Of a DNA stretch of 64,000 nt, positions 31,309 to 61,000 are shown piece after piece. This DNA comes from Hormiphora californensis (Eukaryota > Animalia > Ctenophora), in the NCBI GenBank assembly GCA_020137815.1, contig CM035354.1, forward strand, positions 1,798,001 through 1,862,000, read 5' to 3'. Numbering within the stretch: the first letter of the stretch is position 1; each line of letters opens with the position of its first letter. Below the pieces are notes generated by a model. That model was not told the origin of the DNA, did not search any database, and worked only from the letters and a program-made list of their open reading frames with translations. Both the position numbers and the translations under genes were made by a program.

Positions 31309-31346
31309 GCTGGGTAAAAGGTGAGTTGGGAGGAAACGCAGTTTAA

Positions 31347-31798
31347 AGGTTGACAAGATATCTAAAACTTTTCGTATATCGTCTTATTTTGATTTATCAT
31401 TAATTTACAGCATTTTTTCAGAATTTTTTGTCGGCTAGAAAAAAATTCGAAATAGGGGGTATACCGATATTGTCAGCACTGGTTTTACTGGGCACACTCA
31501 CTGCGTCTCGCAAATTGAAATTCACGTTTCCGGTTCCTCAAAAAAGATAGCTACTTGATATTGGTTGCGTTGGATTGGTCTCAATAAGACCTTTCCAATG
31601 CTACCAAAACGGTTTCTGTATCTCATCAGGAACCGGAGATATTACGGTGCCAATTTTTAAATTGCGCCTCTCGTTTATCAGTAGACCCCCTATTTTGCAC
31701 ATATTTCTAGCCGACAAAAAATTCTGAAAAAATGCTGAAAATCAATGATAAATCAAAATAAGACGATATACGAAAAGTTTTAGGTATCTTGTCAACCT
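31347..31798. mobile_element. TTAA-TSD MITE, Kolobok-like
   Basis: TTAA|AGGTTGACAAGATA ... TATCTTGTCAACCT|TTAA; ~95-bp TIRs. Confidence 0.9.
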
Positions 31799-32045
31799 TT
31801 AAGACTCTTTGGAAGCGATTAATTAAGTGATTAATAAGCTTCAAACATATATTTTCGACAATAAATTAGTCACAAAACGATCCAAAAATAAACACGTGTT
31901 ATTGTGCACATTGCGCACACATGTGTACAGACTCGGCTGTGTGCCAAATACTTCAACCTAAATAACCTTGTGTCAATGTCCTATCGAAAAGATCAGAGTT
32001 GTCATAACTAGCAAAAATTCCAAAATCATAATTGAACCTAAACTT

Positions 32046-33167: not shown

Positions 33168-34499
33168 GTGAGTGAGAGAGAGAGAGAGTACCTGCTAGTA
33201 TGTTATCTGATTCAGTTGTATCTGACTCTGCTGCACTCATAAAACTAACACAGGTTATGTTCCTAACACACTCTGCAGGATCGAAAAACATGGCGTATCT
33301 GAAATAAAATATTACTGGTAGACAAGGAAAACACGAAATATGTTGGTTATAAATTAACCGTAGCTTTCAAATACTCTGGGGTATTCTTCATCAGCGGAGT
33401 GAAATCATCAGCGGAATAAAACTATTGGGGGCGAATCTCTCACAAAAGAAGTGATTGACTCACTAACGTTAGGGTGTGGCCCAATATAACTAGATAGTCC
33501 TACCTAGGTTTTATTGGGCCACACGGTATTTAGTGTGATCAGATGTGAAGGACAATCAAAACTCTCAATGTGTCCCAATCTGGAAGACTTCCAGACGGGG
33601 GTGGCGTGCGAAACAGAGTATAGCTAGGCAATTCCAGACAGGGTATCCGCGACTTAGTGATTAGTGAAGTAGTGAGGGTCATCATGTGCTGGAATTAGTG
33701 CCGAATCTAATTCAGGGGCTACTGCTCAGCTGTTTCAGGTCTGAGATGAAATGTTGGGGGGTAATATATTCAAGTGGACATCACAGTACCTTAGATAGAG
33801 GATTATTCGAGTGAACATCATAGAATCGAAGTGTTTCGTATCCTGTCACAGCCAACATACGTCCATCACTGGAAAACCGGAGTGCATTCACCTGGGAGGA
33901 ACATTTTTATCTACCGAACCCTCACAGAGCACACACAAGGGCCTGTGTAGCCCACACCGTCATTTTTATTCATTGCAAGGAAAAGCCCAAGGAAAATTTA
34001 CAAACAACTTCCCATAATTTACAGGGTTCCATATCAGTGCTGTGTGTGTGTGTGTGTGACAGCTCAGTGCAATCATTCTTCTTGTATGTATTCATTTTTT
34101 ACATTACATTACGTGTGCATCTGTATTCTATACACAAATATGACGTCATGATCTGTGTACCTGTGACATCATGTGTAGCTGTGACGTCATGTGTACTTGT
34201 GACGTCATGTGTACTTGTGACGTCATGTGTACCTGTGACGTCATGTTTACCTGTGACGTCATGTGTACCTGTGACGTCATGTGTACCTATGAGGTCATGT
34301 GTACCTGTGAACTAGTCGGATCCAACTCATACTCCCTATACTTGTCACCGGTAGCCGGGAACCACACGTAAATCTTGTTATCCAGGCCCGCGCTGGCAAG
34401 GAGAGATCTCTCTGTTCTAGTTGGGTCAGTATCGTATTGGTCGTGATGATACGCTGTGTGGTCGGGCTTATCCTGGTGGGCGTAGCTTCTATTTACCAT
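32190..34499 (-). CDS. Divergent LST8/GbL-like WD40 protein (exons approx. 34499-34305, 33891-33790, 33298-33192, 33009-32962, 32842-32190; one phase mismatch unresolved)
   Basis: LLASAGLDNKIYVW..SQ|VNALRFSSDG..; LLLATGGADKTVRLF; HLKWVWNLQIS; RAYSGHEKSVVSLAY follow the LST8 motif order. Confidence 0.75.
33097..33188. repeat. (AG)n microsatellite in an LST8-like intron
   Basis: Read directly from the sequence. Confidence 0.95.
33358..33397 (-). ncRNA. Minimal type I hammerhead ribozyme motif
   Basis: ccg-CUGAUGA-a-gaauac(cccaga)guauuu-GAAA-gc-UA-cgg: stems I and II pair; palindromic AGCU as stem III. Confidence 0.65.
34141..34310. repeat. 18-bp minisatellite (~9 copies) containing the exon-1 donor of the LST8-like gene
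   Basis: Unit tgtgacgtcatgtgtacc reads cacag|gtacacatgacgt on the minus strand. Confidence 0.9.
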
Positions 34500-35518: not shown

Positions 35519-35843
35519 TTTCTAATAAATGGAAAGTGAGTTGGTTTTAGAACGTTTGGCGTCAAACAATATTATCTTAAACAAGACATAAATAAGTTTT
35601 TATATATGACAAACAACAGGAAGCTGCAAGATAGCAAAATAAACTATACACAAAACACTAAAATATATTCTAAATTCTTTATTGGTAGAAGTTTCAAACT
35701 TTCACGGATGACGGAAAAAATTCGCATTTTTCCGGTAGGTACGTCATGTTGATGTCAAGTTCAGCCTGATCTACCCGTGCTTTAGTACCCGTGCGCTACG
35801 TAAAGTGTGCGTCTCATTACGGTAATGCGTTACCGTTTCTCCA

Positions 35844-36702: not shown

Positions 36703-36936
36703 GTCATACCTCCCTGCGAAAAGAAAGGGCTATTATTGAGCTCAGATATATGGAAGTAAACAACATTTACTATCATAAGTTAAAACAATATCAAAGATCA
36801 TTATACAAATTCATTGTCTCTTAAAAACATCTCAAAAATGTTAACATAAATGTTGTCTGCGAATATAGATTGCCGGTTGTAGTTGGAACATGACACAGTC
36901 ATAAACCTCTCAGAAAAACTGAAACACTAATTCACA

Positions 36937-38411
36937 CTAAATAGGTTGCCAGTCTGCTGGTGAACTAAAAACACCGCTCACCATCTCCTCTGTAACATCC
37001 TCCAAAGTTGCAGGGTTCCACCGCGGATTATTGTCCTTGTCCACCAACAACGCCCTGACACCCTCCTGAAACTCACCCAAGGCAAAGGTCGGATCCGCAA
37101 TCTGGACCTCCATCCTGAGACACTCCGTGAAGTCGAGGGAGCGAGAGAGGTGTTGAGTTCGGTGGGCAATACAAAGGGCAATCGGTGACATGGTTGAGAG
37201 TGTCTTGTCAGTTGCTGCAGCGAATTCAGTGGCGCTAGCCTGTAATCGGGAGCGGATCTCCAGAACCGATGGTGCGGAGAAACACTTTGAAATCTCCAGC
37301 AGATTGGACTGGAATGTCAGGTCTGGGATATCATCAGGCTGAAAAGACTCCAAACATTCTACTACATTGTGATTCATATGTGGAAGCTACACAACAGACA
37401 AGTCAGCAATGATCTCCAGATACAGTTTAAAGACAAAGGTCGGACAGGGATCAAGGCAGTCGTACCACCAATGACCAAGACAGGATCGAGTGCAAACCAA
37501 ACACTCTATGACGAGTCCTTTGCGGTCATAGGACCAAAGCTATGGAACAGTATCCCAGCAGAGCTCAGCCGCATTGACAAGTTCGAGAGTTTCAAACGGG
37601 CCCTTACGAAGCACTTCAAGGAAATCCCGGATGAACCTCCTGTTCAAGGTTACAGTAGGAGGAACAACAACTCAGTGCTGGACTGGCTGAGAGATAAACC
37701 TGAAGGGTGTTCGCACGAGGCGATGACCCTGTTGCAGCAGAGGATCTGATCTTCTACAGCTTCGAACAACCTAAAGTGACTAAAGTGAGTGAGCTCACCC
37801 TCACTTCCACATGAAAGTATACCCTCCCGGAGTTCGGAAATTCGGTCCGTGAAGTGCGTCACAAAATCCAAATGAAGTGCATCAGCACCCCTGGTTCTGT
37901 TGCCAGTTAGGGCGAGATACATACCAACATCACCGAGCCTGGATAGGAAATACGTGGCACCCGCATCTGGGTAAAATCCAATCTTGGTTTCAGGCATGGC
38001 AAACATAGATCGAGGAGTGCAGACTCTGTATCGGCTGTTACAACACAACCCCATTCCTCCACCCATCACAATACCATCACCAAGGGATATAATCGGTTTA
38101 AGGAACATTTTCAATCGGTGGTGCATCTGATTTTCACGGGCCATGTTTCCTAAATTCACTATATCTCCACCAGCACAGAAAGCCTTACCACCCGCTCCCT
38201 CCATAAGGATAATGTCCACACTTTCATCCTTTTCAATTTCTCCCAACCTCGCTATGATTCTCTCCACCATTTCATGATTGTAAGAGTTCAGGGCTTTCGG
38301 CCGGTTCAGCAATATTGTAGCTACCCGGCCGTGGTGAGCGAATTCTGCCACATGCGATAGAGATCGTGAAGGAGTGGATACGAGACGACGTAATTGTCGA
38401 GTGAGTAACAT
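36937..38411 (-). pseudogene. HIBCH: HIBCH paralogue disrupted by a LINE fragment
   Basis: Near-identical to 38878-39930 but split at 37365-37791. Confidence 0.8.
37365..37791 (+). mobile_element. 5'-truncated CR1/L2-type LINE 3' end
   Basis: Absent from the paralogous copy; encodes an ORF2-type C-terminus SFAVIGPKLWNSIP..SFKRAL..IPDEPP; repeated CTAAAGTGA tail. Confidence 0.85.
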
Positions 38412-38816
38412 AACGCAGCTCTGAAAAAGAGTCAGGCGAATAAAATTGTGCTAGAATTAACATAAAAGGACACATTTCCCACGGTCATAATAGCTCCACC
38501 CCATGGTAAGATGGAGACACCAAATGTGGAGGTTATGAAGATCATTTCGAAATCAATGGGAGGATAAGTATGAACATCATGTCACATTGCTTCCTCCTGC
38601 AGAAAGAAAGGATTATCATTGTGCTCAGATTTGGATAAAATAAACATTTCACTATCATACGTTCATTTAATGTTAAAACAATATCAAAGCTCATTATACA
38701 AATTCATTCTCTCTTAAAAACATATCAAAACGTTAGATAAATGTTGTCTGCGAATATAGATTGCCGGTTGTAGTTGGAACATGACACAGTCATAAACCTC
38801 TAAGAAGAACTGGAGA

Positions 38817-38880
38817 ACACTAATTCACACTATAATTCACACTATAATTCACACTATAATTCACACTATAATTCACACTA
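38817..38880. repeat. 12-bp tandem repeat x5 at the HIBCH stop codon
   Basis: taattcacacta repeated; single copy in the paralogue. Confidence 0.85.
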
Positions 38881-39930
38881 AATAGGTTGCCAGTCTGCTG
38901 GTGCACTAAAAACACCGCTCACCATCTCCTCTGTAACCTCCTCCAAAGTTGCAGGGTTCCACCTTGGATTATTGTCCTTGTCCACCAACAACGCCCTGAC
39001 ACCCTCCTGAAACTCTCCCAAGGCAAAGGTCGGATCCGCAATCTGGACCTCCATCCTGAGACACTCCGTAAAGTCGAGGGAGCGAGAGAGGTGTTGAGTT
39101 CGGTGGGCTATACAAAGGGCAATCGGTGACATGGTTGATACAGTCTTGTCAGTTGCTGCAGCGAATTCAGTGTCGCTAGCCTGTAATCGGGAGCGGATCT
39201 CCAGAACCGATGGTGCAGAGAAACACTTTGAAATCTCCAGCAGATTGGACTGGAATGTCAGCTTCGGGATATCATCATCATCAGGCTGAAAAGACTCCAA
39301 ACATTCCACTAGCTCACCCTCACTTCCACATGCAAGTATACCCTCCCTGAGTTGGGGAATTCGGTCCGTGAAGTGCGTCACAAAATCCAAGTGAAGGGCA
39401 TCAGCACCCCTGGTTCTGTTGCCAGTCAGGGCGAGGTACATACCAACATCACCAAGCCTGGATAGGAAATACGTGGCACCCGCATCTGGGTAAAATCCAA
39501 TCTTGGTTTCAGGCATGGCAAACATAGATCGAGGAGTGCCGACTCTGTATCGGCTGTTACAACACAACCCCATTCCTCCACCCATCACAATACCATCACA
39601 AAGGGAGACAATCGGTTTGGGGAAGGTTTTCACTCGGTGGTGCATCTGATTTTCACGGGCCATGTTTCCTAAATTCACTATATCTCCACCAGCACAGAAA
39701 GCCTTACCACCCGCTCCCTCCATAAGGACAATGTCCACACTTTCATCCTTTTCAATTTCTTCCAACCTCGCTATGACTCTCTCCACCATTTCATGATTGT
39801 AAGAGTTCAGGGCTTTAGGCCGGTTCAGCAATATTGTAGCTACCCGGCCGTGCTGAGAGAATTCTGCCACATGCGATAGAGATCGTGAAGGAGTGGATAC
39901 GAGACGACGAAATTGTCGCGTGAGTAACAT
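38878..39930 (-). CDS. HIBCH: 3-hydroxyisobutyryl-CoA hydrolase paralogue (350 aa)
   Basis: LNRPKALN, AFCAGGDI, GIVMGGG, AMPETKIGFYPDAG, EGVRALLVDKDNNPRW. Confidence 0.92.
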   Translation of the reverse strand: MLLTRQFRRLVSTPSRSLSHVAEFSQHGRVATILLNRPKALNSYNHEMVERVIARLEEIEKDESVDIVLMEGAGGKAFCAGGDIVNLGNMARENQMHHRVKTFPKPIVSLCDGIVMGGGMGLCCNSRYRVGTPRSMFAMPETKIGFYPDAGATYFLSRLGDVGMYLALTGNRTRGADALHLDFVTHFTDRIPQLREGILACGSEGELVECLESFQPDDDDIPKLTFQSNLLEISKCFSAPSVLEIRSRLQASDTEFAAATDKTVSTMSPIALCIAHRTQHLSRSLDFTECLRMEVQIADPTFALGEFQEGVRALLVDKDNNPRWNPATLEEVTEEMVSGVFSAPADWQPI

Positions 39931-40173
39931 AACGCAGCTCTGAAAAAGAGGAAAGCGAATGATATTATGCTAGCATTATACACGTCTTGTTGAACACGTG
40001 TTTTACAAAACTATTAGTAACTTTAGAATGTAAAAACAATAGTTAACCTCGTATATTCATACAGACAACATCAAGAAAAATATATCGCACCTAACTCAAG
40101 AAATAAATTATGATTCCGAACAAAACCTTAAAAAACATCACTCTTCCCAAAATTCCAGTTCACTGGAAAGTGT

Positions 40174-41277
40174 TTATAGTGGTTTCCATTGCTTGCCAGA
40201 AGACTCGAAGTATCGATCTACCATCTCCTGTGTTACTTCCTCCACAGTGCCGGGTTTCCAGGCCGGACTATTGTCTTTGTCAACAAGCAGCGCACGGACA
40301 CCCTCTGTAAACTCTCCACTTCGATAAATTTCCGAAGCTGCAACGAACTCCCGTGCAAAGCACTCCTCGTAAGAGAAATTACCCCCCTCGGAGAGTAATT
40401 TGTGTGTGACAACGAGTGACCGAGGGGACATTCGCCGGAGAGTTTTCAGCAACTTTACAGCAAACTCTGATCCGTCTTCTTCTAATCGGGAGAAGATTTC
40501 AAGAACAGACGGAGCGGAGAAACAGTGCTTGATAAGATCAACCTGGGGTCCGAGGGTAAATGGGCCAGGAATTGGACTCTCGTGGCTCGCTAAAACCTCT
40601 TCAATGGTGTCCTCATCAGATGCCATGATAGCAGATTTTAGAGCAGGCAATTTCTCCATCTCGGTGTAATGGGTGGCTATCCCGAGGTGTTTTAGATCCG
40701 CTCCCTTAATCCGATGTCCAGTTAATCCGAGGAACATTCCATAGGGTTGCTCCAATCTTGACAAAAAATAAGATCCGCCAACATCGGGGAAATAACCAAT
40801 AGCGGTTTCTGGCATTGCATAAAGAGTACGCTCCGTTGCCACCCTGTATTTTCCGTGTAGAGACAAACCGACACCACCGCCCATTGTAATACCATGGATA
40901 AGTGAGACGTATGGTTTAGAGTAGGTCCCAATCATATAATTCATCTGGAATTCATCGTGGAAAAATGTCAGGGCAGCAGAGTCGTCTGCCGCCGATGTCG
41001 TTATTGATACAACGTCGCCACCAGCACAGAAAGATTTCGCGCCCGATCCCTCTACGCACACAACGCCGACACTCGGATCAGCATGCCAGGTCATCAGGTT
41101 GTCCCTTATTTGGTGAACCATATTTAAGTTAATAGCATTTAGAGCTTTTGGACGGTCCAGGGTAATCAATCCGACCTTTCCTTCGCGTGTAAAGTGGACC
41201 TCCTTTGCTGCAGTTGCCATACTTCGCATCGACAGGATGACTGGTTTGGCGAGTTTCGATGTAATTCGACAAGCCAT
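40174..41277 (-). CDS. HIBCH: 3-hydroxyisobutyryl-CoA hydrolase, canonical copy with a mitochondrial-type presequence
   Basis: LDRPKALNA, FFHDEF, GITMGGGVGLS, AMPETAIGYFPDVG; first ATG at 41277. Confidence 0.93.
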   Translation of the reverse strand: MACRITSKLAKPVILSMRSMATAAKEVHFTREGKVGLITLDRPKALNAINLNMVHQIRDNLMTWHADPSVGVVCVEGSGAKSFCAGGDVVSITTSAADDSAALTFFHDEFQMNYMIGTYSKPYVSLIHGITMGGGVGLSLHGKYRVATERTLYAMPETAIGYFPDVGGSYFLSRLEQPYGMFLGLTGHRIKGADLKHLGIATHYTEMEKLPALKSAIMASDEDTIEEVLASHESPIPGPFTLGPQVDLIKHCFSAPSVLEIFSRLEEDGSEFAVKLLKTLRRMSPRSLVVTHKLLSEGGNFSYEECFAREFVAASEIYRSGEFTEGVRALLVDKDNSPAWKPGTVEEVTQEMVDRYFESSGKQWKPL

Positions 41278-41717
41278 ACGATTCTGACAAGCAGATCCCT
41301 GAATTATGTGAATCAATAGTTAACATTAAAGCCTTAGAATAGCGAGAAAGGTGATAAAAAGCATCAGAAAACGGAAAACTTGACGGGTTTTTAAAAATGA
41401 ATTCGATTTTTCGCCTTTTTTGAGCTGCGCTTGCTTGGTTCGAAACGCGCGCACGCGTACCTGGGACCTGCAGCGCATAACATTTTTTGTAAACCTGAGA
41501 TTTCGGTTCCAAGATTTTAAAAATACCCTTTTGGACTTTTTCAACTTTTGGCGTTTTGTTGCTATTTGTCTCTCTGGCCATCGATAGGCCAGAGAGGGTT
41601 CCAGACGTTAAGATCAACAAGATCTCTTCTTTATTTTCTTTTTCTAGTTGAGCACACTCAACGAAACGTCAAAGTTCTTCCCGGAAATTTCCGCGGAAAG
41701 GACTTATTATTCATACA

Positions 41718-41756
41718 TCAAACTTTTCAACACTACTTTAAACAAATTAATTTGAG
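41718..41756 (+). other. Spliced-leader-like sequence at the 5' end of a retroposon, no GT donor
   Basis: TCAAACTTTTCAACACTACTTTAAACAAATTAATTTGAG; identical to the reverse complement of 54948-54986; matches my recollection of the Pleurobrachia SL (needs verification). Confidence 0.75.
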
Positions 41757-42425: not shown

Positions 42426-43553
42426 TCGTTGTGCAGTAGAGGACGTTTTTTATATCAAGAACGGGCTCAAACAACCAAGTGAACAACAGGTTGATGGAGT
42501 ATTGTCCAAGTTATTGGATTCTAGTTTGTATGATGATCCTGAGCAGTATATTGAGGACGCACTGCCGAAAGACTCCGAAATGAGAAAGTATAATGTTGAT
42601 CGTTTCATGGCTTTCACCGAGAACCTCTCTCGTCATATTTTTCGGATAGTGAGAGAAATAGGACCAGTTATGAAGGAGAAACGTCTGTATGCAACTGCCC
42701 GAATGAAAGAACGCCTGGAACTAGAGGAGTGTAATCAGAAGCTCAAGGAGGTACAAGAAGAGCTTGGCACTTTTAAGGAAGAAATCGACAAACATCGGGT
42801 ATCAAGGATTGAACTGCAAGAGAAGCTGATTGAAGCACAAAATACTTTGATTGAAGTACAAGGTCGAAAACTTAGTTCAGTGTCAGAGTCTGTTCAGAAG
42901 CAATTGCAGGGCTACTCCAAGGTGCTTGTACAGAATTGCTCTGCAGCTATTACACCATCCCGCCTCCAAGCAGCATTGAAGAAAGCGACTGTACCCCATC
43001 CAAGTACAACCGCGGAAGAAGCAACTCTTGATCGCAAGTTGAATTTGGTTATATTTGGGCTGCCAGAAACTACGGCAAGGGCTACTGAGCATGAAGTTCA
43101 GGATATCTTTGGAGAGCTCAATGAAAAACCAGTCATATCTTCTACAAAGCGTATTGGCGAAAAGACTGATAACCGACCGAGACCAGTAATTGTTACACTT
43201 GAAAGGAGGGAAACTTTGTTACAACTTCTAAGAAAAGCAAAACAGCTCCGAGATTCAGAGAAATTCTCCTCGGTGTTTCTCTCCCCCGACCTAACACCGG
43301 AGGAGCAGCGAGAGCGGAAAACTCTCGTTGATACAGTGAAAGGACTGAGGCGAGACAATCCGAATGGACGATACTGGGTTAGCAGGGGGGTAATTAAATG
43401 TGGCTGACCTGCTACATGTAATTTGTACTCTAAAGAGACTTCAAAAGGAACCTTATGACTATCAGTTTAGCCCACAAAAAGGGGCAGTATATGTTGTATT
43501 TTATCCAATGTATACATTTTAGATTTAATAATAATAATAATAATAATCATACA

Positions 43554-46500
43554 CCCAACAAGTTGAGAATCCTCAACAATCACTCACCACCCCGATCACA
43601 TGATCACGCGATCCAAAGCCAAGGCACGTCTCTCACCAGTAGCCCTTCGGCCGTCATCATCCCTACACAGACCGTTCCACCCACAAGCTCACCTCAGATC
43701 GTTTGTCGTATCCCCTGACGACTCTCTATCCTCCGACAGCTCAGGATCGGCTTCAGACGGTGACCATGATTATGCTACTCCCAACACCAGCATCACAAGG
43801 GGAACACCCATTTCAAACTCAACGCCCATAAGCAGATTGATAAATGAGTCGAGGTGGTTTACAGAAGAGAAGTGTGGGCAATGCTATGAAACACTGCCGT
43901 CTTATGAGAATGCCAAATGTGAAGCATGTCATGAACCGTTTCACCAGACCTGTATGACACCGGTTAATCAATCTGAACAAATGGTTCATACACCTGTAGT
44001 GTGGTATTGTACTGCCTGTTTCAACCTAAACAGATTAGTTTGGAAGACTACAGAGCCTTGTAAAGCTAACTGTTGGGGACCGTTGAATGGAGAAGAGCTC
44101 ATCGAGGCTTTCTCTAACATCTCTATGATCAGTCAGGGATGGTCAACCAACCTGTTCAAAGTTCCCTTCGGTCAAGTGGGCCGTTCTTTCATTGATGAAC
44201 TTACCAGACTGGCAGGTCTCTTCAGTGATAGGGAAGACACCAGAGGATGGTCCTTATCTGCTTTGGTTATAGCCCCACTGCTGCTACTCCAGAAGCCGGC
44301 CAGGAAGTCGAAGAATCGGGAGCATGCTCAAGTTCTCAAACGACGCCTAAAACTGTGGCACGATGGAGACTTTGAGGCGTTGGTTCGGGAAGCCAAGGTT
44401 ATCCAGAAACCATTGAAGCACAATGTCCCATCTTCGGAACTCTGCACTAAGAGGTTTGTGGACCTAACCAGAGAGGGGAGAGTTACAGAGGCAACTGCAT
44501 GGTTGAACCCCGAGAGGCATACAACTGGAGTTAAGGACTGCAACGACGAGTCCGTATTGTCTGATCTGCTAGAGAAACACCCAAAGGGTCAGCCTGCCAA
44601 CAGTACCCTGGCGAGACAGGGGCCAACAGATGCAGTATTGGAAGTCACCTTTGACGGTATGAATGGGCAAACGATTTTCTCATGCGGCAAAAGCCTCAAA
44701 GGTAGTGGAGGACCAAGTGGACTAGATGCAACAGGAATACACCGAATCCTTTGCTCCAGGAAATTCAAGAAATCACCCCCAGCACTGTGCACAGCGCTTG
44801 CAAAAGCAGCTCGGACCCTAGCCACAGAGCAGGTTGACTTGAAAGCTTTAGACATTTTCTGTGCAAGTCGCCTCATGCCCCTTGCCAAGCCTGGAGGTGG
44901 TACGCGTCCTATTGGAATAGGAGAGTGTTTCAGACGTGTTATGACCAAGGCCATTATTCGCACCATCAAGTCGGACATCAAGAGTGCGGCTGGAAAGGTT
45001 CAACTAGCTGCAGGTCAGTTAGGAGGTGTGGAGGCAGCGATCCATGCACTGAGTGAGAAGTTTGAATCTGAGGAATGTGAAGGTGTACTGTTGTTGGACG
45101 CCCAGAACGCGTTTAACAATCTCAACCGGAAAATGGCCCTGAAGAACACTACCTTCTACTGTCCGGACCTCTCCACATTTCTGACCAACATCTACGGGAA
45201 GCCAAGGGCACTTTTTGTTGGTGAAAAGCTACTGTGGAGCTCTGAAGGAGCCACACAGGGAGATCCAGCTGCAATGGACTTCTACTCAATTGGCATACTA
45301 AGACTGATCGAGCTTGCGGAGACGCCAGATACAACACAAGTGTGGTATGCAGATGATGCAAACAATGCAGGGAAGCTCACGGGCTTGTTAGAGTGGTTTG
45401 ACAAGGTGACAACCTTTGGCCCTAGTTTCGGATATTTTGTAAACCCTGCAAAGTGCCATCTTATCGTGAAACCTGAACTGCTCGACCATGCAAAGCGGCT
45501 GTTTGGAGATACTGGGGTTCAAATCACTGCTGAAGGTGCTCGTCACCTAGGTGCTTCCATAGGATCTGAGACCTTCAAGCAAACATTTGTTTCTGCTGCA
45601 GTTTCCAAATGGTGCATTGAGCTGGAAAATCTTGTGGCTATTGCCAAAGCCCATCCTCATTTGGCGTACAGCAACTTTGTGAGAAGCTTCCGATTCAAGT
45701 GGGCCTTTCTCCAGCGAACAGTTCCAGACATCAGTGATCTGTTTGATCCGCTTGAACACACCATCCGTTCACAGTTGATTCCATGTCTGGTGGGCCGTCA
45801 AGTGTCCGACCTAGAACGGGAGATACTGGCACTCCCCTCTGGGAAAGGTGGAATGGGTATTGAGAACCCCGTCAAAACCTCTGACAGATCATACAGCAAC
45901 TCCCGAGCATTGACGAAGCCCCTTGTTGATTTGATACTATGCCGTAACGAAGAAGAAATAGAAATGGCTCTAGTGGAGAAGAATGCAAGAGAGGCAAGGA
46001 ACAAGATAGCAAAGGAGAATGAGGACCACCACTCAGACACTCTCAAAGAGTTACTCACTAGAATCACATGCCCAAAGCTAGTGAGATGTCTAGAGCTCGC
46101 TGGAGAGGCCGGAGCATCTGTATGGCTCACGGCAACACCCTACCCTCACCTGGGCTTCGAACTGAATCAATTGGAATTCGTCGACTCAGTGGCACTGCGA
46201 TACGGGTTTGAGGTCAAAGATTTGGGCGCGACATGCGTATGTGGAAAGCCAAACAATGCGGACCATACCTTGTCCTGTTCAACCGGGGGCTATTCCATCC
46301 TCCGTCACGACAACATCAGGGACCTAATGGCGGAGATATGCTCGTATGCGGGCCTCAAAGGTGTGGAAACAGAGAAGCTACTTCTCCCTTGTCCGGACGG
46401 CATACACTTTCACCCTTCGGCAAACACAGCCCCTGATGCAAGGATGGATGTGGTCGCACTTGACATGTGGCGAAAAATGCAGCTGGCTCATATGGATGTG

Positions 46501-47110
46501 CGAATTTTCCATGCCAATTCGCCCTCCTATATCGACACGCCCCTCGACCAACTCTACCGAAGAAACGAGGCTAGCAAGAAGCAGTCGTACGGAAAGCGTG
46601 TAAGAGAAGTTGAAGGGGGTGCCTTCTCTCCGCTGGTTATGAATACAGCAGGCGGGATAGCCAACGAGTTCCAAAAGGTGCTGAAGACTCTCTCACACCG
46701 AGTCTCCACAAGAACCGGAGAACCGTACAATGAAGTTATGGCGCACCTGAGGACGAGGCTACGATTCTCCCTCCTGAGATCATGCCTTATTGCTTTAAGA
46801 GGAAATCGGAGGAAGATCGCTATCACTAGTCTAACAAATACTGAACTGGTGACCTGAGGAAGAGAGGAATGAGAAGAACTTGAGGATCCGAAGATAAATT
46901 GATCCGAGGATGAATTGATTTATTGTTTTGTTCTTTCTTCTTTCTCGATTTTTTTTCTCTGCTGCGGTTCACACACTTTAAAAATTTTCCTCCGTTTTTA
47001 AATTTTTGTCTCTGGTGCAGGTGTCTCCTGAGTCCTGTTGTCTCCGGTCTGCTCAGTGCTCAGTGCTCATTGCTCAGTCGACAGTCCTGAAGCATCTTTA
47101 TCTTTTTACA
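43554..47110 (+). mobile_element. RLE-type (CRE-like) retrotransposon body; 5' UTR probably continues left of 41717; 3' end not defined
   Basis: Intact 1085-aa ORF with a T-rich 3' region; no TSD found. Confidence 0.7.
43600..46857 (+). CDS. CRE-clade-like non-LTR retrotransposon polyprotein (PHD finger, RT, zinc knuckle, restriction-like endonuclease)
   Basis: C4HC3 PHD; RPIGIGE, GGVEAAIH, LDAQNAFN, EGATQGDP, WYADD; CVCG..H..C, RHDNIRD, ARMDV..DVRI, EASKKQSY, FSPLVMNTAGG. Confidence 0.93.
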   Translation: MITRSKAKARLSPVALRPSSSLHRPFHPQAHLRSFVVSPDDSLSSDSSGSASDGDHDYATPNTSITRGTPISNSTPISRLINESRWFTEEKCGQCYETLPSYENAKCEACHEPFHQTCMTPVNQSEQMVHTPVVWYCTACFNLNRLVWKTTEPCKANCWGPLNGEELIEAFSNISMISQGWSTNLFKVPFGQVGRSFIDELTRLAGLFSDREDTRGWSLSALVIAPLLLLQKPARKSKNREHAQVLKRRLKLWHDGDFEALVREAKVIQKPLKHNVPSSELCTKRFVDLTREGRVTEATAWLNPERHTTGVKDCNDESVLSDLLEKHPKGQPANSTLARQGPTDAVLEVTFDGMNGQTIFSCGKSLKGSGGPSGLDATGIHRILCSRKFKKSPPALCTALAKAARTLATEQVDLKALDIFCASRLMPLAKPGGGTRPIGIGECFRRVMTKAIIRTIKSDIKSAAGKVQLAAGQLGGVEAAIHALSEKFESEECEGVLLLDAQNAFNNLNRKMALKNTTFYCPDLSTFLTNIYGKPRALFVGEKLLWSSEGATQGDPAAMDFYSIGILRLIELAETPDTTQVWYADDANNAGKLTGLLEWFDKVTTFGPSFGYFVNPAKCHLIVKPELLDHAKRLFGDTGVQITAEGARHLGASIGSETFKQTFVSAAVSKWCIELENLVAIAKAHPHLAYSNFVRSFRFKWAFLQRTVPDISDLFDPLEHTIRSQLIPCLVGRQVSDLEREILALPSGKGGMGIENPVKTSDRSYSNSRALTKPLVDLILCRNEEEIEMALVEKNAREARNKIAKENEDHHSDTLKELLTRITCPKLVRCLELAGEAGASVWLTATPYPHLGFELNQLEFVDSVALRYGFEVKDLGATCVCGKPNNADHTLSCSTGGYSILRHDNIRDLMAEICSYAGLKGVETEKLLLPCPDGIHFHPSANTAPDARMDVVALDMWRKMQLAHMDVRIFHANSPSYIDTPLDQLYRRNEASKKQSYGKRVREVEGGAFSPLVMNTAGGIANEFQKVLKTLSHRVSTRTGEPYNEVMAHLRTRLRFSLLRSCLIALRGNRRKIAITSLTNTELVT

Positions 47111-48902: not shown

Positions 48903-49272
48903 TGATATGGGGCAGAGAAAAGAGAAGGGGAGAAAAACAAAGAACTTCCGAGTAGGTTGAAATGAGGGATTGAGGAGTGATGTATTTCTTTATTATATGG
49001 ATGTTTATGATTTTTATTGTGTGAAAATATCCGGCACTTGAGGGAAGATATGATATATGAGTGTGTTATACGCTGTGTGTATTGTATTGTGTTTTGTTTC
49101 TTATGTTTTACACACCTTGTAATTATTACACAATGATACTACCCCCCCCCCCCCCTGCACCTATAAAAGTCTGGCAATCTTTCGGTGTTGATATCTTTGG
49201 TAGAAATTGGTTTCATATATATCAAGGGTTTGGATTGTTGAATGTTTTTTATGAATTGTGCTGGTGCAGGTA

Positions 49273-49908
49273 CTGGGTGTTCATTTTGGATCTTTACAAG
49301 CGTTGGCCTTCACCCAGAAAAAAGTTGACAAGATCAGGTCATGAAACTTCATACTTGGACTATTCTATACCCTCATTCAAGGTTCCTGGGGGTTTTGGAG
49401 CTCTAGCACCCCGGGAAGTGTATTTTTGGCATCAAAACTACCAGAAGGAATTTTTGCTGGTGCTGAGACTTTGCTAAAATGTTTTTTGGGTATTTTCTAT
49501 GTCAATCCTAAAGTTTCATAGAGATTGGATGTGTTTTTCGGACTCAAAATTTCGATAAAAGTGGCTGGAAAGGCTCGAAAACAGCTCAAAAACTGCTAAA
49601 ATTGAGTCTTTCCAGCCACTTTTATCGAAATTTTGAGTCCGAAAAACACATCCAATCTCTATGAAACTTTAGGATTGACATAGAAAATACCCAAAAAACA
49701 TTTTAGCAAAGTCTCAAAACCAGCAAAAAATCCCTTCTGGTAGTTTTGATGCCAAAAACACACTTCCCGGGGTCCTAAAGCTCCAAAACCCCCAGGAACC
49801 TTGAATGAGGGTATATAATAGTCCAAGTATGAAGTTTCATGACCTAATCTTGTCAACTTTCTTCTGGGTGAAGCCCAACGCTTGTAAAGATCCAAAATGA
49901 ACACCCTG
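49273..49908. mobile_element. Palindromic Tc1/mariner-like MITE with TA TSD
   Basis: TA|CTGGGTGTTCATTTTGG ... CCAAAATGAACACCCTG|TA; ~300-bp inverted arms. Confidence 0.88.
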
Positions 49909-50266
49909 TAGATAATTAAATGAGTTGTATGAACAAACCAACTACAAAGTGATTTCCCTGTTATACCTGAATTTGGATTGAAGCTTAGAAATTCACAGGA
50001 ACAAAGAGAGGTGTGAGTGCATTGGCTGTCAAGCCATTTCCTGACAGATGATCCATACAAGATGGCACACCGCTCGTCGTTATCGTTTGGTTCTCGGAGG
50101 GATCAATGATCTAAGAAAACTAGAGGACTAGACGGTTGGAACATTTCATGCATTTTGGATGGTTTCACTAATGTCCCCTCCCTTATCTGTCCCATTATAT
50201 CTACCCATATCTTCCCTAATATCCCCTGTTCCCTAATTATTAATATCCCCTGTTATCTACAGCACC

Positions 50267-52762: not shown

Positions 52763-53706
52763 ACAATTTAGAACATGGAAATCGTCTCTGTCCATCCTCT
52801 CAATTTTGAGAGTGAGAGAGAGGCGCCTGGGTTGAAGAAGCACGAATTTGTGACTAGCATAATGTAAAAACTATTACACTACTCTCTATACCACTACGTT
52901 ACCACCGTGTATCGATATTATTCGCCGTTTTTTTCTTGTGTTGTTGTGTACCATGTATTTTTTGTAAAATTAATCCGTTTTTAAGTTGAAAAAGGACCAG
53001 AAGTGAGCCATAATGAATCACTTCAATCCTTTGAAACGAAACACCTGTGTTTCTATTTTGTGTGTATGGAATCCCTATCAAATCCCCGGTGTGACTGCTC
53101 CACTGGAGAGTGTAAAATGATGTAACGTGACACGATCTTGGCCCGGTCACACTTTTCTCGGTTTCCATATCAACTTGCTGTGACGCGCGGGTACACTATT
53201 TGGAGATAACTCCGCGCAGCTTCTGCTTCCTAAAATTCGTACGCGCAAATGAAGTAACGCGCGTAATTTAGTAAAATCAATTGCGCGGCGTAGGGTTTTG
53301 TAAATTTGACTCGAATATTTTAGAAATCAAAATTTAAAAACGCGTCACTTTTCCAAAAAAAACGAACGAGGGCTTAACTTCAAACAGCAATCCGACAATA
53401 CCGGGTTCCATGATGGATACGAGGGTACTCTCGACACTTCGGTGTTGTACCACTTTGCAGGTTCACTCTGTGACCGATCGTGGTGTGCGTTTATTATCTG
53501 AGACCCCGGTGTCGGATTGCTGTTTCTTTCAACGAGGGCTTTGGAGTTGAACGTTTGCCAAGCTTTGGAGACGAGATTTCGTCCTCGCAGTCAAACGATC
53601 AGATACCTTCAATATTTAGCGTTGCGAAAGTTCATGTTGTTGAAAAGGTGGACGGGGTGATAAATTGGTGTGTGGGGGGACACGTCCGGGGCGTGGGAGG
53701 TCATAC

Positions 53707-54894
53707 GAAGTTTCAAACTTTCATCAACTACAACGTAAAACTATTTATTGAGTGATGGGAACGAAAGATAACGAGGGCGATAACCCTACGAATGAACGAT
53801 TGATAAAAGCAGTGAACGACCATGTTATGGAAATTATGAGAATGGACTACGAGGATACCTCGGAAGAGATAACTTTTGAACCGCAGCAAGTAACGAATAA
53901 CTACAACTTTATCAAACAATTCCCCGAGTCAAAACTTGGTTCACCGAGTGACGATATATGCTCTCACTTTAGACGTATTCTCAAGACCTTATCTAAAGAG
54001 GAAATCATTGACACTACATGTAAAACTTTTTTGTCCGGTGTGAAACTTCTGAAATGTGCAATGCATAGCCTTGATGAGGTTAGTAGTACGAGGAAACTAG
54101 AGGAGGAGTTTCGTAAGTGCAAAGAAGAACTTGACCGCCACCGTGTTACGGTGATTGAGCTGCAGCAGACCGTCATCAACAATCAACAGCAGCAACTCAG
54201 TTCAATGACAAACTCAGTACAGAAGGTGAAAGCTTACTCTACTGTTCTTGCTCAAAACTGTGCTGCAGTCTCTCCGGTGGTGAGAAAATATTCTCAAGAA
54301 CCAACTCACGCACCATTGTCCGAGAGGGATAAAAATCTTGTAATATTCGGTATACCAGAAACAACTGACCGCCTGACTAAGAACAGTGTCGATGGTTTGT
54401 TTGCCGAGCTGAATGAAAAACCGAAAGTAAATTCGATCAAACGTATCGGCGAGAGAAACGAGAAGGGCCCTCGACCTCTATTGGTTTCTTTGGAAAAACG
54501 AGCAACACTTATGGCGCTGCTGAAAAAGTCACGTCAGCTGAAGAACTCGGAACACTTCTCAGCTGTTTACTTTTCACCAGACCTAACTCCAGTCCAAATA
54601 AAGGAGCGTAAAGCCCTTATCACCACCTTGAAAAAGCTCCGCTTAGAGGACCCGGGCGGAAAATATTATATCAAAAACAATATAATCCAAGTAGGATAGG
54701 ACTATTATTCCCACTACGTGATCTATCATAATCTTGTTGCAAAGCTAGCCGCTTTTGGAGCGAGGGCTGTTGAGGATGAAAGAGGATGTGTTGATGAATC
54801 TGACTCCCAGCAGCAGAACTTGTGCTGAGCCGTATATCGGACAGTTAAAAAGCGGACTATAAATTTACATTTTGTATTTGTATTTGTATTTGTA
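53707..54894 (+). mobile_element. ORF1-only LINE-like retroposon B with variant SL-like 5' end and (TTTGTA)4 tail
   Basis: SL-like 53707-53752 ends in TTGAG 2 nt before the ATG; ORF homologous to element A; tail at 54871-54894; TSD uncertain (possibly AAGT). Confidence 0.75.
53755..54699 (+). CDS. LINE ORF1-like protein (coiled coil plus RRM/CTD-like region)
   Basis: ERDKNLVIFGIPE, KRIGE..GPRPLLV, VYFSPDLT; paralogous to the ORF of element A. Confidence 0.85.
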   Translation: MGTKDNEGDNPTNERLIKAVNDHVMEIMRMDYEDTSEEITFEPQQVTNNYNFIKQFPESKLGSPSDDICSHFRRILKTLSKEEIIDTTCKTFLSGVKLLKCAMHSLDEVSSTRKLEEEFRKCKEELDRHRVTVIELQQTVINNQQQQLSSMTNSVQKVKAYSTVLAQNCAAVSPVVRKYSQEPTHAPLSERDKNLVIFGIPETTDRLTKNSVDGLFAELNEKPKVNSIKRIGERNEKGPRPLLVSLEKRATLMALLKKSRQLKNSEHFSAVYFSPDLTPVQIKERKALITTLKKLRLEDPGGKYYIKNNIIQVG

Positions 54895-54914
54895 AGTCAA
54901 AACACGGTGGTTGG

Positions 54915-54947
54915 TTGGAACGTTTCGGGGTTGTGCCCCTTCTTCAG
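54915..54947 (-). ncRNA. Hammerhead ribozyme core directly downstream of an SL-like sequence
   Basis: CUGAAGA-a-gggg(cacaa)cccc-GAAA-cg-UU-ccaa; palindromic AACGUU; stem I imperfect. Confidence 0.5.
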
Positions 54948-54988
54948 CTCAAATTAATTTGTTTAAAGTAGTGTTGAAAAGTTTGAAA
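54948..54988 (-). other. Spliced-leader-like sequence, no GT donor
   Basis: TTTCAAACTTTTCAACACTACTTTAAACAAATTAATTTGAG followed by CT. Confidence 0.75.
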
Positions 54989-55090
54989 GATCAATATTAC
55001 TTCCTTCAGTCTAAATTATCCCTGAGCTTTAATTCTTGAGTATATTTCCACAGATTCGTGGCCCCAAACTAGTCTGTAGGCGGGTATTTT

Positions 55091-58000
55091 ATGTCTAACA
55101 AAGCCAGTGGCTCTGGAATAACAAGGAGCAAACGTCATTTCCCTAACAAGGAACCCAACAACTTATCAGAGGTGAGATTGAAAGTTGTTTACTTTACACA
55201 AACATCCTAAGTAGTTTCAAGCTCTCGCTGATCTCCAAATATTTGTTAGATACGCCCAGATTCAGGCAGCGAAGAGGATTCTTCAAACATAGTCGATGGG
55301 CTTGTGGAAATAGGTAAACTTATCACTGATAACCCCGGATTAAAGAACGATCTTGAATGCTACTTCAAAGAGACCAAGAAAAAAGGACGACGCCCATCAC
55401 GTATGTCAAATGCTTTGTTACTTATCCATTGAATATACTCGTGTTTAAACAACTTTTACAGATATCTATTAACTACGTCAGACCCTTTGTTTTAAAACAT
55501 TTTCTCGACTATTGTAATAACATAAGGGTGAGCGGTAAAATATCATAACTTCTTAAGGACCATTACAATCGTTTCTCAGGTAAGAAAAAGCGTGAGAAGG
55601 CCCGAGAAGTGAAAGAGGAGTCGAAGTTTGAGGAACGGCTAGAGCACCTTATTCAATCTTATCTCACCGAAAAGAGTCGCACCGCACCTGACATTGACGT
55701 GAGTAGAATTACAGTTTTTAGATAAAGTCTCCTATTTGATAGAGAGAAGACTCCTCTGTAAGTCTCTTATTTAAGAGAGATAAGACAGTTCTCTATTACT
55801 GCCCACCCCCATCTAAGCTAGGGAGATATGTACTATGACATTCTTTAACCACCCCCTCCTATTCAGGGAGATGAGTTGTTACAAGGATTCAAGAGTACGT
55901 TTACCGCTATAGGGGATTCTAACAACGCCACCGTCACACAAGAGTCGCCAATGGAAATAGACAGTGGAGAAGAAGATGAAGTCACATTCATCCCAACCCC
56001 ATCATCATCTACCACAAACACAACTCCCCCAAAGTTTGCTCCTTTCCCAAACAACCCTCCAATAAACCCATACACACGCCCCCAACAACAGCAGGCAATA
56101 TACCCACCCCGACTCCCAACAACTACAGCACCAATACGGAGCAGACCGCCACCATCGCCACCGGTCTGTTACCCCATCTCACCCGCTGCTGCAGTAGCCC
56201 CACCTAACCGACCCAGGGGTCCGCCTCCTCAACATTTGTTTGGGGAGATCAGGCACCAAGTTCGTCGACCACCCTTCCCAACAAACCAGCTACCGAAACA
56301 GTTCCGGCGACACCCCCCTCCCGGGCCTCCCTCACTCCCTCCTCCACCTCACATACTAACGGTACAGCAGCAACAATTCAACAATACCAGACCACCTCCC
56401 CCACCTCCCCCCGGCCCATCTTGGGATGTTCCTCCTCGTGTCCCTTACCACCCGGCAATGATAGAGGCTGATCTGAGGCACATTCCCCTACCGTCATCCC
56501 CTGTACATCCCGTCCCTGCTGCAGTAGTTCCAGAGGGAGGAGAGGCGGAGATGGAGATAGATGATGATGATGATGAGACCCATTCCATGATAACCATCCC
56601 TGAATCGGAGGTTAGTGTTTGTTTGAACCTCTCTTATTTGTACACAGATTGTTATTATATATTCTAACAGTTTATATATTCTAACAGTTTAGGCAGAAGT
56701 TTTGGTGTTTGTGTTGGTTCGTGAATTATTGGTAGGACTTACTTGAACCAAAACCAAACACGTTTGGTGGATTTCCCGGGGCAACAGAACGTGAAAATAT
56801 TTTATATCGAAAATAAATGATATGGAGACGCCCGGGGGCCGGGGTGCTGTCAAGTCCACTGTTCATATGAATGGCTACAGTTTGGAAAACTCAGGTGTTT
56901 TATGCAACGAGACAACTTTAAATTGTTTTCTTTCATTAAGAAGTGATTGGACAGTTTGTAAATAGTGGACTTGACAGCACCCCGGCCCCCGGGCGTCTCC
57001 ATATCATTTATTTTCGATATAAAATATTTTCACGTTCTGTTGCCCCGGGAAATCCACCAAACGTGTTTGGTTTTGGTTCAAGTATCATGTGTTTTGGTTT
57101 TACCACAGATTCATTTCTCGACCAAATTGAGCCGGCCTGAAGTTTATCTAAAATCGGTAGACACTCGCGATATACACATACATATATTGAAAATCGTCCT
57201 AAATTTTACGACCGTCTTGTTATGATTGACCAATTTACACCATCTCGCTTTAAAACACGGCCAAGCGCTAGCACTAAAAGATGTTTTTGGAATTGTGCAG
57301 TTACTATTTACCGTTTTTGAGAAATTGTGTTTCTTAGAAATCGTCTTAATTATTTAAGACCGTCATAACTCTTGTTATAATAGACCAATTTACACCATCT
57401 CGCTTTAAAAAACGGTCAAGCATTAGCACTAAAAGATGTCTTTGGAATTGTGCAGTTACTGTTTACCGTTTTTGAGAAATCGTGTTTCTTAGAAATCGTC
57501 TTAATTATTTAAGACCGTCATAACTCTTGTTATAATAGACCACTTTGCGCCATCTCGCTTTAAAACACGGCCAAGCACTAGCACTAAAAGATGTTTTTGG
57601 AATTGTGCAGTTACTGTTTACCGTTTTTGAGAAATCGTGTTTCTTAGAAATCGTCTTAATTATTTAAAGTGAGAGTGGACCGAATCAGAATTGGACAAGT
57701 TTGTTGTAGGTAGTATAGATTATCTTTCTGAGCATTTTGCAGTTTTAGCCGCTCAAAATCGACCCACCCATCACTGAGATATTTTTGTTATGTTGGGAGA
57801 ACTCCTGTTTAATCAGTATGTATAAAACAGAATAGAAACAATCGTGGTGTTTTACTAACACATTCTGAATATATGCAGTGAGGTTGACATGTCCATGCAC
57901 AGAAGCAGGGCAATGCAAGCCAGCATATTAAGAATTTAAAGAATGTGTTAGTAAAACACAAGGATTGTTTCTATCCTGTTTGATAAATACTGATCCAGCA

Positions 58001-61000
58001 GGAATTCTCCCAACATAACAAAAATATCTCAGTGATGGGTGGGTCGATTTAGAGCGGCAAAAAGGCAAAATGTTCAGAGAGCTATTCTCTACTACCTACA
58101 ACAAACTTGTCCAATTCTGATCCGGTCCACTCTCACTTTAAGACCGTCATAACTCTTGTTATAATAGACCAATTTATACCATTTCGCTTTAAAACACGGC
58201 CAAGCACTAGCACTAAAAGATGTTTTTGGAATTGTGCAGCTACTGTTTACCGTTTTTGAGAAATCGTGTTTCTAAGATTGACGCAAAAATCAGTATCTAT
58301 CTATCTATCGATCTATCGACCTATATATCTTAATTGTGCGAAATTTGAGCCCTTCATAACTTGTGAAGTACAAACGCTAGGAACGTGAAATTTTTACACA
58401 AGAAAGTTCCCTAGTTGGCAACTCTTAATACAAAATTTGAGCTGGATTGGAATAATGGAAGTATGTTTTTTAGCCGCTTGAAAAGGGCCTATCTGTAAAA
58501 TAAGTATATAAGCGCTGGCCCGTAAAGGGGCGTTGACAGCCAGTTCCCCTCTCTGCTGTGGGTGTCAGGTTACACTGTACTACTCCTGCATACTACTGCT
58601 GCAGTAATGGCACTACTTTCACCACAATTGTGTTTCTTGGCCTGGGGTTGGCCCCGGGGCGCTTGCCAGCGCTGTGATGAGAAAGGCTGCTTCTTCTTAT
58701 TTTGTAATCTCTACAATGTTCTGGGCTGACACTATCAATCAATGATTATTTAATGCTGTTGGGACCCTGCGTCATAGTCACAATAGCACACATGTTAAAA
58801 GATGTGTTGTTTAGTCTAAAGAATTTTATGTTTGATTAACGCGACGGCCGACGCTAGTTCTGGTCGAATCGTTACGTGTCATCTCCGCCTTTCAACTTGT
58901 TTTGTTCAAAGGAAGGAGGGTCGAACAAGGCAACTTTCAACAATAGTGGCCATGAATCAGGGTGAGATCATCTGGGGTATCATGTTTCAGGCTTGGTGTA
59001 AACATTCCTAGTGTTGAGATAATTCCTAGTGTAAATTTGTAATTTGAAACTCTAATTAGATCTGCTATAACTGCAGGGGGACCTCATTAGAGTATTGCCC
59101 TTTGTTATGCCAATGAGTATGGGAGGAGGGAGGGTGACTTTTTTAGACTGTCTTTAAATGTGACCTCCCTTTTGCTTAAACAACGAACAGGGCAAGAAGT
59201 GGGTAGGCGGCAGTCAATGGAAAATATGGAGTAGGGGGTAGGCAGTGTAGAGGGTTTCATGATTTAACTGCCTCTCACACTTTCTCTCCTGCACAGGATA
59301 CAGGAAGTTATGCAGAGGATAGTATCCCCTCTGAAGACGACCTAGAGAGTATCTCTTCCTCTGACGACAGTGGATCAAACCATACCCCCTCCCCACCAGC
59401 ACGATCTAGAACATCAAACCACACTCCCTCCCCACCAACAACATCACGGTCTAAAGGAACATCAAACCACTCTCCATCTCCATTGCGGTCTAAAGCATCA
59501 AACCATTCTCCGTCATTATCATCACGAGCTGTCTCAAACCCCCGAAAGACATTTCCAGAACCTGTAGCAATGAAGTCAACCACCGATAAAACCACTCGTA
59601 AACCAGTGAAAACCACTCCATCGTTATTGAAAACTATCATGTGTTCTCCGCCTAAACCACCTCAACCACTCAAACCGTCACCAACAACTTCAAATCTACA
59701 CTCAGCGTCAAATCTACAAATAACGATAACCACTCAACTACCCAATGGGACACCCCCGGACACATCAGGTACATACGATTAAATTACTCCGTGTTTTAGG
59801 TTGGATAATGACTGGTTAGTGGTTTGTGAGAACCGAGACATTTATCTGAGAAGTTGTTAACCTCTCTTTTCTTTCCGTTAGGACCTGCAGAAGGGTCATC
59901 TCACGATGGAAAAGAAGAGGGAGAACTAGATGGTTCAGACTCGTCAGATCAACTAGAAACAGGGGAGGTAGCAGCTCTTAGATCCATGCTACTGAATAGT
60001 ATCCGGAAAAAGAAAGATAACGTTCCATCACCACCCCATCCTGACCCTGTTATCCCTCCCCCTGTAGAGCACCCATTGGAGCAGCTAGGTAAATAAGTTG
60101 TGTAGCTCTCCCTGTATTTTGAGGGTAAATGGAGGTCTTATATCCAGGAAGTCAGCCGAGAAAGAATGAAAAGAGGGAGGGAGAGCCGAGAGAGATTAGA
60201 GAACTGTGGATTCGCTCCGATACAACATAACTTTGTCCTTTTGCGCGGGCGCGGTCAACGAATTGCAGACCTCCTCGCGCGTTTGTGTATCACTAAGTCA
60301 CGTACACTCACTTTTTAGAGTTTTTCAGGTTAATTTGATAACTTGATAATAGTTGTTGTGACTACAAATATTATTTACTCACAAAAATTCCTTACAGCAG
60401 CTCCAGTATCTCCTGTTCGACAAAGTAAACGAATTAAAACCAGTGGCACTAGCTTCTCCCCGGGAGAAACAGGGTCGAGCAAGGGAACCTTCTCGATCGA
60501 GGAAGTGGCGGAGATAGTTGGAGATCTGCCAGTTGTCGATGAGGAGGCCTTTAAACGGTTTTATGTTAGCCGCAAACAGCAGAAGAAGGCTAGGCAACGT
60601 GCCAGGAGCTTCAAATGTGATCCGTGAGTTAAATTGAAATAACGATACTTTTTTGTCCAAAATATTTCACCCAGGGATTTATTGTAATTGTTTCTCCAGG
60701 TTGGATCTGCTAAAGGAAGAACTGTGCTTTGATCCCCTCGAGAGACAATGGTCTACCGTCAGTAGCTACAACACCGCAGCAGTCACACCGGGTTTCTCCT
60801 GGAAACGTCTAGCTAGATACCTCAAACACGCCGAATCTTTGTCATCACGGTTCAAACAAACCTTCACTGAGACCCACAATGGAACATCATCGTTCGATCA
60901 ATTGTTTCCAAGTGTTCCTGAGAAGAATACGGTAGGAGAGGTGGTAGTAGTAGAGAAGCAAGTTGAACCTCAGGTTGTGGAAGTGAAGTCAGGAAAGAAA

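Follow-up and report, generated by a model that had tools for sequence, protein, structure and literature searches.

The question raised by this locus of Hormiphora californensis is how a copy of the animal's spliced leader (SL) came to lie, on the minus strand, directly against the core of a hammerhead ribozyme. The window analyzed here, by which we mean the whole stretch of 64,000 nt, contains the junction and several related features, and their coordinates are collected in Table 1. In the reading that we favor, with moderate confidence, the locus is a retrocopy of a trans-spliced RNA of the Penelope-like element (PLE) type, in which the leader was joined to a minimal hammerhead ribozyme (min-HHR) core.

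Table 1. Features of the ribozyme-bearing unit and of its relative in the window
Feature	Positions	Strand	Basis or remarks
Minimal hammerhead core, predicted cut after 54919	54919..54947	-	sequence, folding, public contigs
SL exon copy, 41/44 nt, first 3 nt missing	54948..54988	-	identity to printed leader
Spacer of 9-13 nt, variable, then conserved box CCGTGTTTTGAC (54907-54896)	54896..54918	-	contig rows, 33346-33328
Element B, later insertion into the unit	53712..54893	+	uninterrupted junction in X5, X7
Ribozyme-bearing unit, continuation past element B	53542..53707	-	X5, X7 rows; belonging observed for first 10-15 nt, rest inferred
MITE-like palindromic insertion	53376..53530	.	11-bp direct repeats 53365-53375 and 53531-53541; in putative continuation
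Possible 3' end of unit, ending in a T-run	53355..53375	-	sequence alone, candidate boundary
Leaderless related member	33328..33397	-	core 33394-33361, different 6-bp stem II, same box 33346-33328

The leader of H. californensis is given as 44 nt long, with 718 genomic copies, in the available portion of the source (PMC8527503), and sequence comparison with the leader printed there revealed that its last 41 nt match 54988-54948 (minus strand) at every position. The core motif CUGAAGA begins immediately after the leader's AG with zero gap (leader end at 54948, core start at 54947), which bears out the earlier claim that the leader joins the first base of a CUGANGA box. An SL RNA gene would continue from the exon into a GT donor and an intron, but here the leader is followed by CT. 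On the plus strand, a stretch of pyrimidines closes with CAG at 54947; it was rejected as an acceptor, as leader and core both lie on the minus strand.

The core is arranged in the order CUGAAGA (54947-54941), an extra A (54940), stem II (54939-54927), GAAA (54926-54923) and C-G-U-U (54922-54919). Stem II is a 4-bp G-C helix with a 5-nt loop, and folding gave pair probabilities of 0.92-0.93. The catalytic boxes CUGANGA and GAAA are thus both present, with a U-H cleavage site, and the core also carries the three marks that Cervera and De la Pena give for the min-HHRs of PLEs in the accessible part of their report (PMC4209133): the extra nucleotide that separates position 9 from 10.1, a G10.1-C11.1 pair and a palindromic 15.2-16.2 segment, here A-C-G-U. 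Words of the form CUGANGA were found at 42 of 128,000 window positions (both strands), while the full core was matched at 2 of 127,880 positions of the window and at 0 of 960,000 positions after shuffling; a relaxed core scan likewise returned 0 matches in 20 shuffles of 64 kb. By chance alone the core should arise no more often than about 3e-6 times per position, and with 718 leaders the expected number of fused cores is well under one. Rfam hammerhead covariance models, a check proposed in the earlier note, gave no match in the window at the gathering threshold or at E ≤ 10, which is expected of a core without helices I and III. Judged by its sequence, the leader-fused core is confirmed as a minimal hammerhead of the PLE (Penelope) type, with cleavage predicted. 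The earlier assignment to a PLE or retrozyme type therefore stands in its first half only, since neither a canonical type I hammerhead with full helices nor small tandem repeats were found in the window.

The fusion is not peculiar to this locus. Public contigs of six runs (19 listed) were compared with it, four of DNA (X1, X4, X5 and X7) and two of RNA (X17 and X19). Depth over the core far exceeds that over unique flank, with summed contig values of 37,000-58,000 versus 116 in X5 and 370-560 versus 26 in X1, and a query of the core plus 12 nt of leader gave summed depths of about 60,000 in X5 and 11,000 in X4; such sums overcount and are not copy numbers, and the zero depth at 54780-54899 marks a masked repeat zone that was left out. 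X17 yielded 0 records and X19 gave no cover below 54936, neither of which is evidence of absent expression. Exact or near-exact cores are present in many contigs under two organism labels, the second being that of X7. The rows read from loose contig ends are a selected subset (24 of 116 and 15 of 21); those of the former set were in part picked for agreement with the first 1-4 letters of the window, and several rows are consensuses of low agreement. Among the rows listed, six of the ten DNA-run rows that extend 3' of a leader have CUGAUGA at 0, +1 or +3 nt from it, these six accounting for 44 of 95 records in X1, X5 and X7, and the other four rows lack CUGAUGA.

Three other leader-fused stems II are complete and paired among the rows listed (GGUGU/ACACC, GACGU/ACGUC and GAUG/CAUC). 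In each, an extra U precedes the opening pair G10.1-C11.1, and at least these three cores have AUG where stem II begins, the window copy having AAG there. The three stems, taken by eye from 30-nt consensus ends whose agreement is 0.56-0.89, represent, together with a fourth stem in the window, described below, compensatory changes across families. The leader-core fusion is therefore a repeat family and not a single copy. The first part of the refuting case named in the earlier note, that no related cores with covarying stem II would turn up, is contradicted by at least three different paired stems II, and its proposal of a retrocopied, ribozyme-bearing RNA agrees with the multicopy, retrocopy-like family seen in the contigs. 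A pattern scan of metagenomes for a leader end followed by a core gave 16 loci. At none of them was there a leader (identity at 10-22 of 41 positions), and these were rejected as chance or unrelated matches; a metagenome locus, L003:3972-4001 (minus strand), has the words CUGAUGA and GAAAC and no leader.

The window itself holds a second member, at 33394. It has a 3-bp helix I (CCG/CGG), no leader and no AG at the junction position. Aligning the two cores of the window with each other was uninformative, and the comparison was made by pattern search: a pattern for the box and one for core plus box each gave exactly two matches in the window where 0.01-0.02 would be expected by chance, the box patterns having been written after both copies were seen. 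To go by the two sequences, the 33394 member is a picture of the form that bears helix I, and in the leader-fused copy neither arm is conserved. The member lies within a predicted intron of the WD40 gene, on the same strand and about 95 nt upstream of the predicted 3' splice site, so that its predicted self-cleavage could affect splicing of the host gene. A short direct repeat of the first core words was also seen just upstream of it (33328-33420).

If the leader was added to the RNA by trans-splicing, copies that escaped processing should have an acceptor where the leader is joined. Upstream sequences were viewed with the core plus 12 nt of leader as query (15 of 21 rows shown), and seven rows extended upstream, four of them leader variants and three not. 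All three non-leader rows (4 records) have AG exactly at the position of the leader's AG, among the rows listed, the background frequency of AG being 0.066. The X4 row combines two records that differ from each other, with a long U-rich tract before the AG; the X7 row has branch-point-like words before it; and the X5 row is U-rich, has U in place of C3 and may be a leader in decay. A further X5 record (record 10) parts from the window sequence at 54947 and lacks the G of the AG, so that three of the four visible leaderless ends carry AG at the leader's AG position, one of the three being this possible decayed leader. Two leaderless rows have an acceptor-like context. The leaderless upstream sequences differ among themselves, and no single source outron is found among them. 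The AG at three of the four ends makes it likely, as far as these rows go, that the junction is a trans-splice acceptor, as had been claimed. The earlier note proposed to look for unspliced source copies and their native stem I: leaderless copies exist, but helix I is not clear in those that are native and AG-ended.

Downstream of the core, the box listed in Table 1, or a near variant, was found after a variable spacer in all eight downstream rows shown. It can be regarded as a candidate signal for the initiation of reverse transcription or for protein binding. Five of the eight rows go separate ways a short distance past the box, which would fit many copies ending at this point. The other three (X5 at 54911 and 54914, X7 at 54897) run uninterrupted into the sequence from 53704 leftwards, and these contigs argue that element B interrupted the ribozyme-bearing unit; the earlier suggestion that the RNA continues left of 53707, beyond element B, is upheld. 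Element B comprises a divergent SL-like head (about 53709-53752), an ORF for 314 aa (53755-54699) and a (TTTGTA)4 tail, and it is flanked by AAGT at 53708-53711 and 54894-54897, either a 4-bp duplication or microhomology. The protein has a coiled coil, 26 relatives among 967 candidates and 46% identity over 220 aa to the product of an ORF at 42316; the nearest Atlas clusters are commonest in Ctenophora. A Pfam search with it gave no convincing family, and we take the protein to be LINE ORF1-like. The head of element B is a divergent leader, and the contigs also contain variants of the leader that differ at about 4 positions or by small indels, making it likely that several leader types are being retroposed. 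A 17-nt exact match to the start of this leader-like head lies at 35688-35704 (plus strand), without the remaining leader.

The continuation of the unit past element B (53542..53707, minus strand) has 60% A+C, rising to 67% in its first 90 nt, and repeated protein searches with it gave no credible homologue. By eye, 53534-53704 (minus strand) resembled a decayed PLE N-terminus, an idea rejected after no word-based homologue and no Pfam match in three frames were found; the sole weak match, with 9 of 26 positions identical (E = 4e-4), was to a protein with repeats and was judged spurious.

Other retrocopy-like sequences and repeats are present in the window. At 41721-41756 (plus strand) there is a second leader copy, with 36 nt identical to the leader 3' part at 54948..54988, followed after about 130 nt by a 535-nt near-exact duplicate of 43004-43538 and a (TAA)n tail. 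The duplicated source is the 3' part of an ORF1-like gene, and the 41721 copy is another leader-headed retrocopy or a chimera. Right after a (TAA)n run, at 43567-46857 (plus strand), lies an ORF for 1096 aa with PHD/C1 finger, reverse transcriptase (RT) and restriction-like endonuclease motifs, which by eye we presume to be CRE/SLACS-like; its product is a possible helper for leader-headed retrocopies. Three tandem copies of an enoyl-CoA hydratase (ECH_2) gene occupy 36900-41320 (minus strand), and many of the host genes in the window appear as long single ORFs (MutL, sulfotransferase, mitochondrial carrier and two Frag1). Long inverted repeats of MITE or foldback-like type are found at 5703-7106, 31343-31802, 49271-49910, 56740-57084 and 57743-58063, and a 155-nt tandem repeat at 57215-57679.

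Among the alternatives to a trans-spliced PLE-type RNA, the one that survives best, though we consider it unlikely, is a SINE-like family: a hammerhead relic derived from a PLE, copied by LINE machinery, with its 5' end renewed by trans-splicing at the AG of its own leader. Leader-headed retrocopies that are not PLEs do occur in the window (element B with its tandem tail, and the leader at 41721), and the window family is of high copy number, is common to two organism labels and has neither AUG nor coding homology, all of which would suit such a family. A scan of the unit for target site duplications (TSDs) revealed none that was convincing, however, nor was a poly(A) or tandem tail found for the unit, whose 3' end is a candidate one. 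Several independent cores, moreover, keep both a paired stem II and an AUG, which points to repeated input from different active elements rather than to one relic.

A second alternative concerns helix I. The earlier note had suggested that the 3' end of the leader (UUGAG) pairs with CCAA as a replacement stem I, and on this basis the leader could act as an activating switch, with the RNA cut only after trans-splicing and its cap thereby removed. A bulged 4-bp helix of this kind can be drawn, and the pair G2.1-C1.1 is kept in all six readable rows with a canonical core. In a non-canonical subfamily (X1 and X4 rows at 54922) the strand is CUCAA and could form 5 bp with the leader end; this register places C at 16.1 and so breaks the rule for that position. 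The ribozyme of PAc, a Poseidon-clade PLE of Anolis, needs the help of protein, and weak helices therefore need not mean a dead ribozyme. Against these points, the bulged SL/CCAA helix had pair probabilities of only 0.001-0.016, and imposing it gave a folding energy of -6.0 kcal/mol compared to -6.7 kcal/mol for stem II alone. Without a bulge the leader offers the single pair G2.1-C1.1, short of the 2-5 bp of helix I in min-HHRs. The strand after the cut also differs between copies (CCAAC in three rows, CGACC in two and CUACC in one, with one core non-canonical and one row unreadable), so the leader is not a conserved partner. An activating switch is accordingly improbable, and the replacement stem I is not supported. 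The broader idea of a switch keeps its precedent in Penelope of Drosophila virilis, but the data fit a loss of helix I better than an exchange of its strand, and it appears more likely from the sequences that splicing removes helix I and acts as an off-switch. With no clear helix I in the native AG ends either, the family of the window copy may be inactive in both forms, or may depend on protein help as PAc does.

It is also conceivable that the leader was never part of the RNA, and that SL RNA genes are the target of the element, with insertion at the end of the exon. SLACS/CRE and NeSL elements insert into such genes. In the window, the other leader copy is followed at 1.8 kb by a CRE-like RT, and the 22 nt upstream of the two leaders (41698-41720 and 54984-55006) match at 15 of 22 positions, which could reflect a target preference or chance in AT-rich DNA. 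However, the sequences that precede leader copies are heterogeneous (agreement 0.39-0.55 among DNA rows of several records), and X1 and X5 contigs covering the right flank of the locus (records 8 and 24) match it up to 54986 and then continue unlike the leader, as an alternative allele without leader would. These two observations make it likely, on the sequence of the flanks, that the leader arrived together with the insertion, which argues against an SL gene as target. The offsets of 0, +1 and +3 nt also track the core and not a cut at one fixed place, and leaderless copies keep the AG, so that this explanation is very unlikely. That a retrocopied leader and hammerhead-like words came together by chance, in favor of which the lack of an Rfam match and a whole-unit folding no better than shuffles (z = 0.40, -1.15 and -0.27) could be cited, can be dismissed given the rarity of the core and its recurrence with different paired stems in several families under two labels.

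Our preferred reading, retrocopying of a trans-spliced PLE-type RNA, can be set out as a series of steps. That the leader-core junction recurs, both across many copies and across several families that differ in stem II, is observed. As suggested by the AG-ending leaderless copies, the element RNA would hold a 3' splice acceptor where helix I is bounded on its 5' side, and the host would trans-splice its leader there. Trans-splicing would remove the 5' strand of helix I, and the capped RNA would not self-cleave; in AUG-bearing families the spliced RNA would also stay translatable, its cap and start codon protected. From PAc biochemistry, we infer that reverse transcription would start internally, at or past the conserved box, and run off at the 5' end of the leader. 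In AT-rich DNA this would leave stubs with a length of about 90 nt, measured to the box, up to about 280 nt should the continuation belong in full, for which a pLTR arrangement is predicted to be absent; neither a tandem nor an inverted one was found, and no second copy of the unit lies nearby in the window. The window copy would then have come to carry AAG for AUG and been split by element B, as observed at the junction, and a MITE-like piece also sits in the putative continuation.

In favor of this scheme, copies part from one another a short way past the box, as PLE ends with an optional tail do, and in D. virilis an intron end at helix I gives rise to different spliced and unspliced ribozymes. 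Against it, no RT-GIY-YIG ORF is linked to any copy, whether among the 26 window ORFs scanned or in the 30 nt read from other copies, and the only RT among the scanned ORFs (43567-46857) is CRE-like by eye and not of PLE type. PLE copies are, furthermore, known to keep introns, which makes spliced templates unexpected (PMC2377424, available text). A more general version, which we put forward tentatively, is that in pleurobrachiid ctenophores SL trans-splicing gates a retroelement ribozyme in many families, through an acceptor kept 0-3 nt from the catalytic box, so that splicing would disable the hammerhead and permit translation, with stubs from internally primed copying of spliced RNA making up a large share of the 718 leader copies and full elements arising from unspliced RNA. 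If true, gating would explain why PLEs keep their introns.

Should the favored reading be correct, the locus would be a genomic sign that spliced, sense-strand PLE-type RNA is reverse-transcribed and inserted, and would provide an origin for part of the hundreds of ctenophore leader copies, which are reported without a mechanism in the portion of that study at hand (PMC8527503). The function of PLE hammerheads and the retention of introns by PLEs are stated open questions (PMC8557442, PMC3846280, PMC11167929), and the leader-fused and native forms represent a natural pair of constructs for splice-gated ribozyme activity. In the literature searched, at the level of titles and abstract openings, neither a leader-hammerhead fusion nor ctenophore leader-ribozyme elements were described.

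Among the closest known systems is the pLTR hammerhead of D. virilis Penelope, which has a minimal core, the extra nucleotide, a palindromic helix III and a very short helix I. The intron of its 5' UTR extends up to the 5' edge of helix I, which is 2 bp long, placing the 3' splice site at that edge, so that spliced and unspliced ribozymes differ (PMC4209133, accessible part), and most of its transcripts are spliced (PMC2377424, available text). There, however, the intron is spliced in cis and kept in genomic copies, whereas here SL trans-splicing is likely and the spliced form occurs in many genomic copies. PAc resembles the present family in having an AUG at the start of stem II, as three other leader-fused families do, and in its AT-rich targets, the end of copies soon downstream of the ribozyme and AC-rich downstream RNA; its RT initiates 111-118 nt into the ORF and its cut site is 26 nt after the start codon (PMC11167929). 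PAc differs in its defined helix I and in having no reported splicing, while the window copy lacks the AUG and would have been initiated internally.

In the SL-tagged retrogenes of dinoflagellates a DNA copy of the added leader likewise marks an RNA that was reverse-transcribed, those described in the excerpts available being protein-coding host genes (PMC6050394, PMC5585692, PMC12014239), in contrast to the ribozyme-headed mobile fragment of an animal seen here. Metazoan non-LTR retrozymes are also small and non-autonomous with a type I hammerhead, but they have full helices, loop-loop contacts and tandem repeats leading to circular RNA (PMC7229834, in the part available), in place of the minimal core and leader found here. 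Both ingredients of the locus are known on their own, a PLE min-HHR whose helix I adjoins a splice site and retrocopies tagged with a leader, and the locus would combine them.
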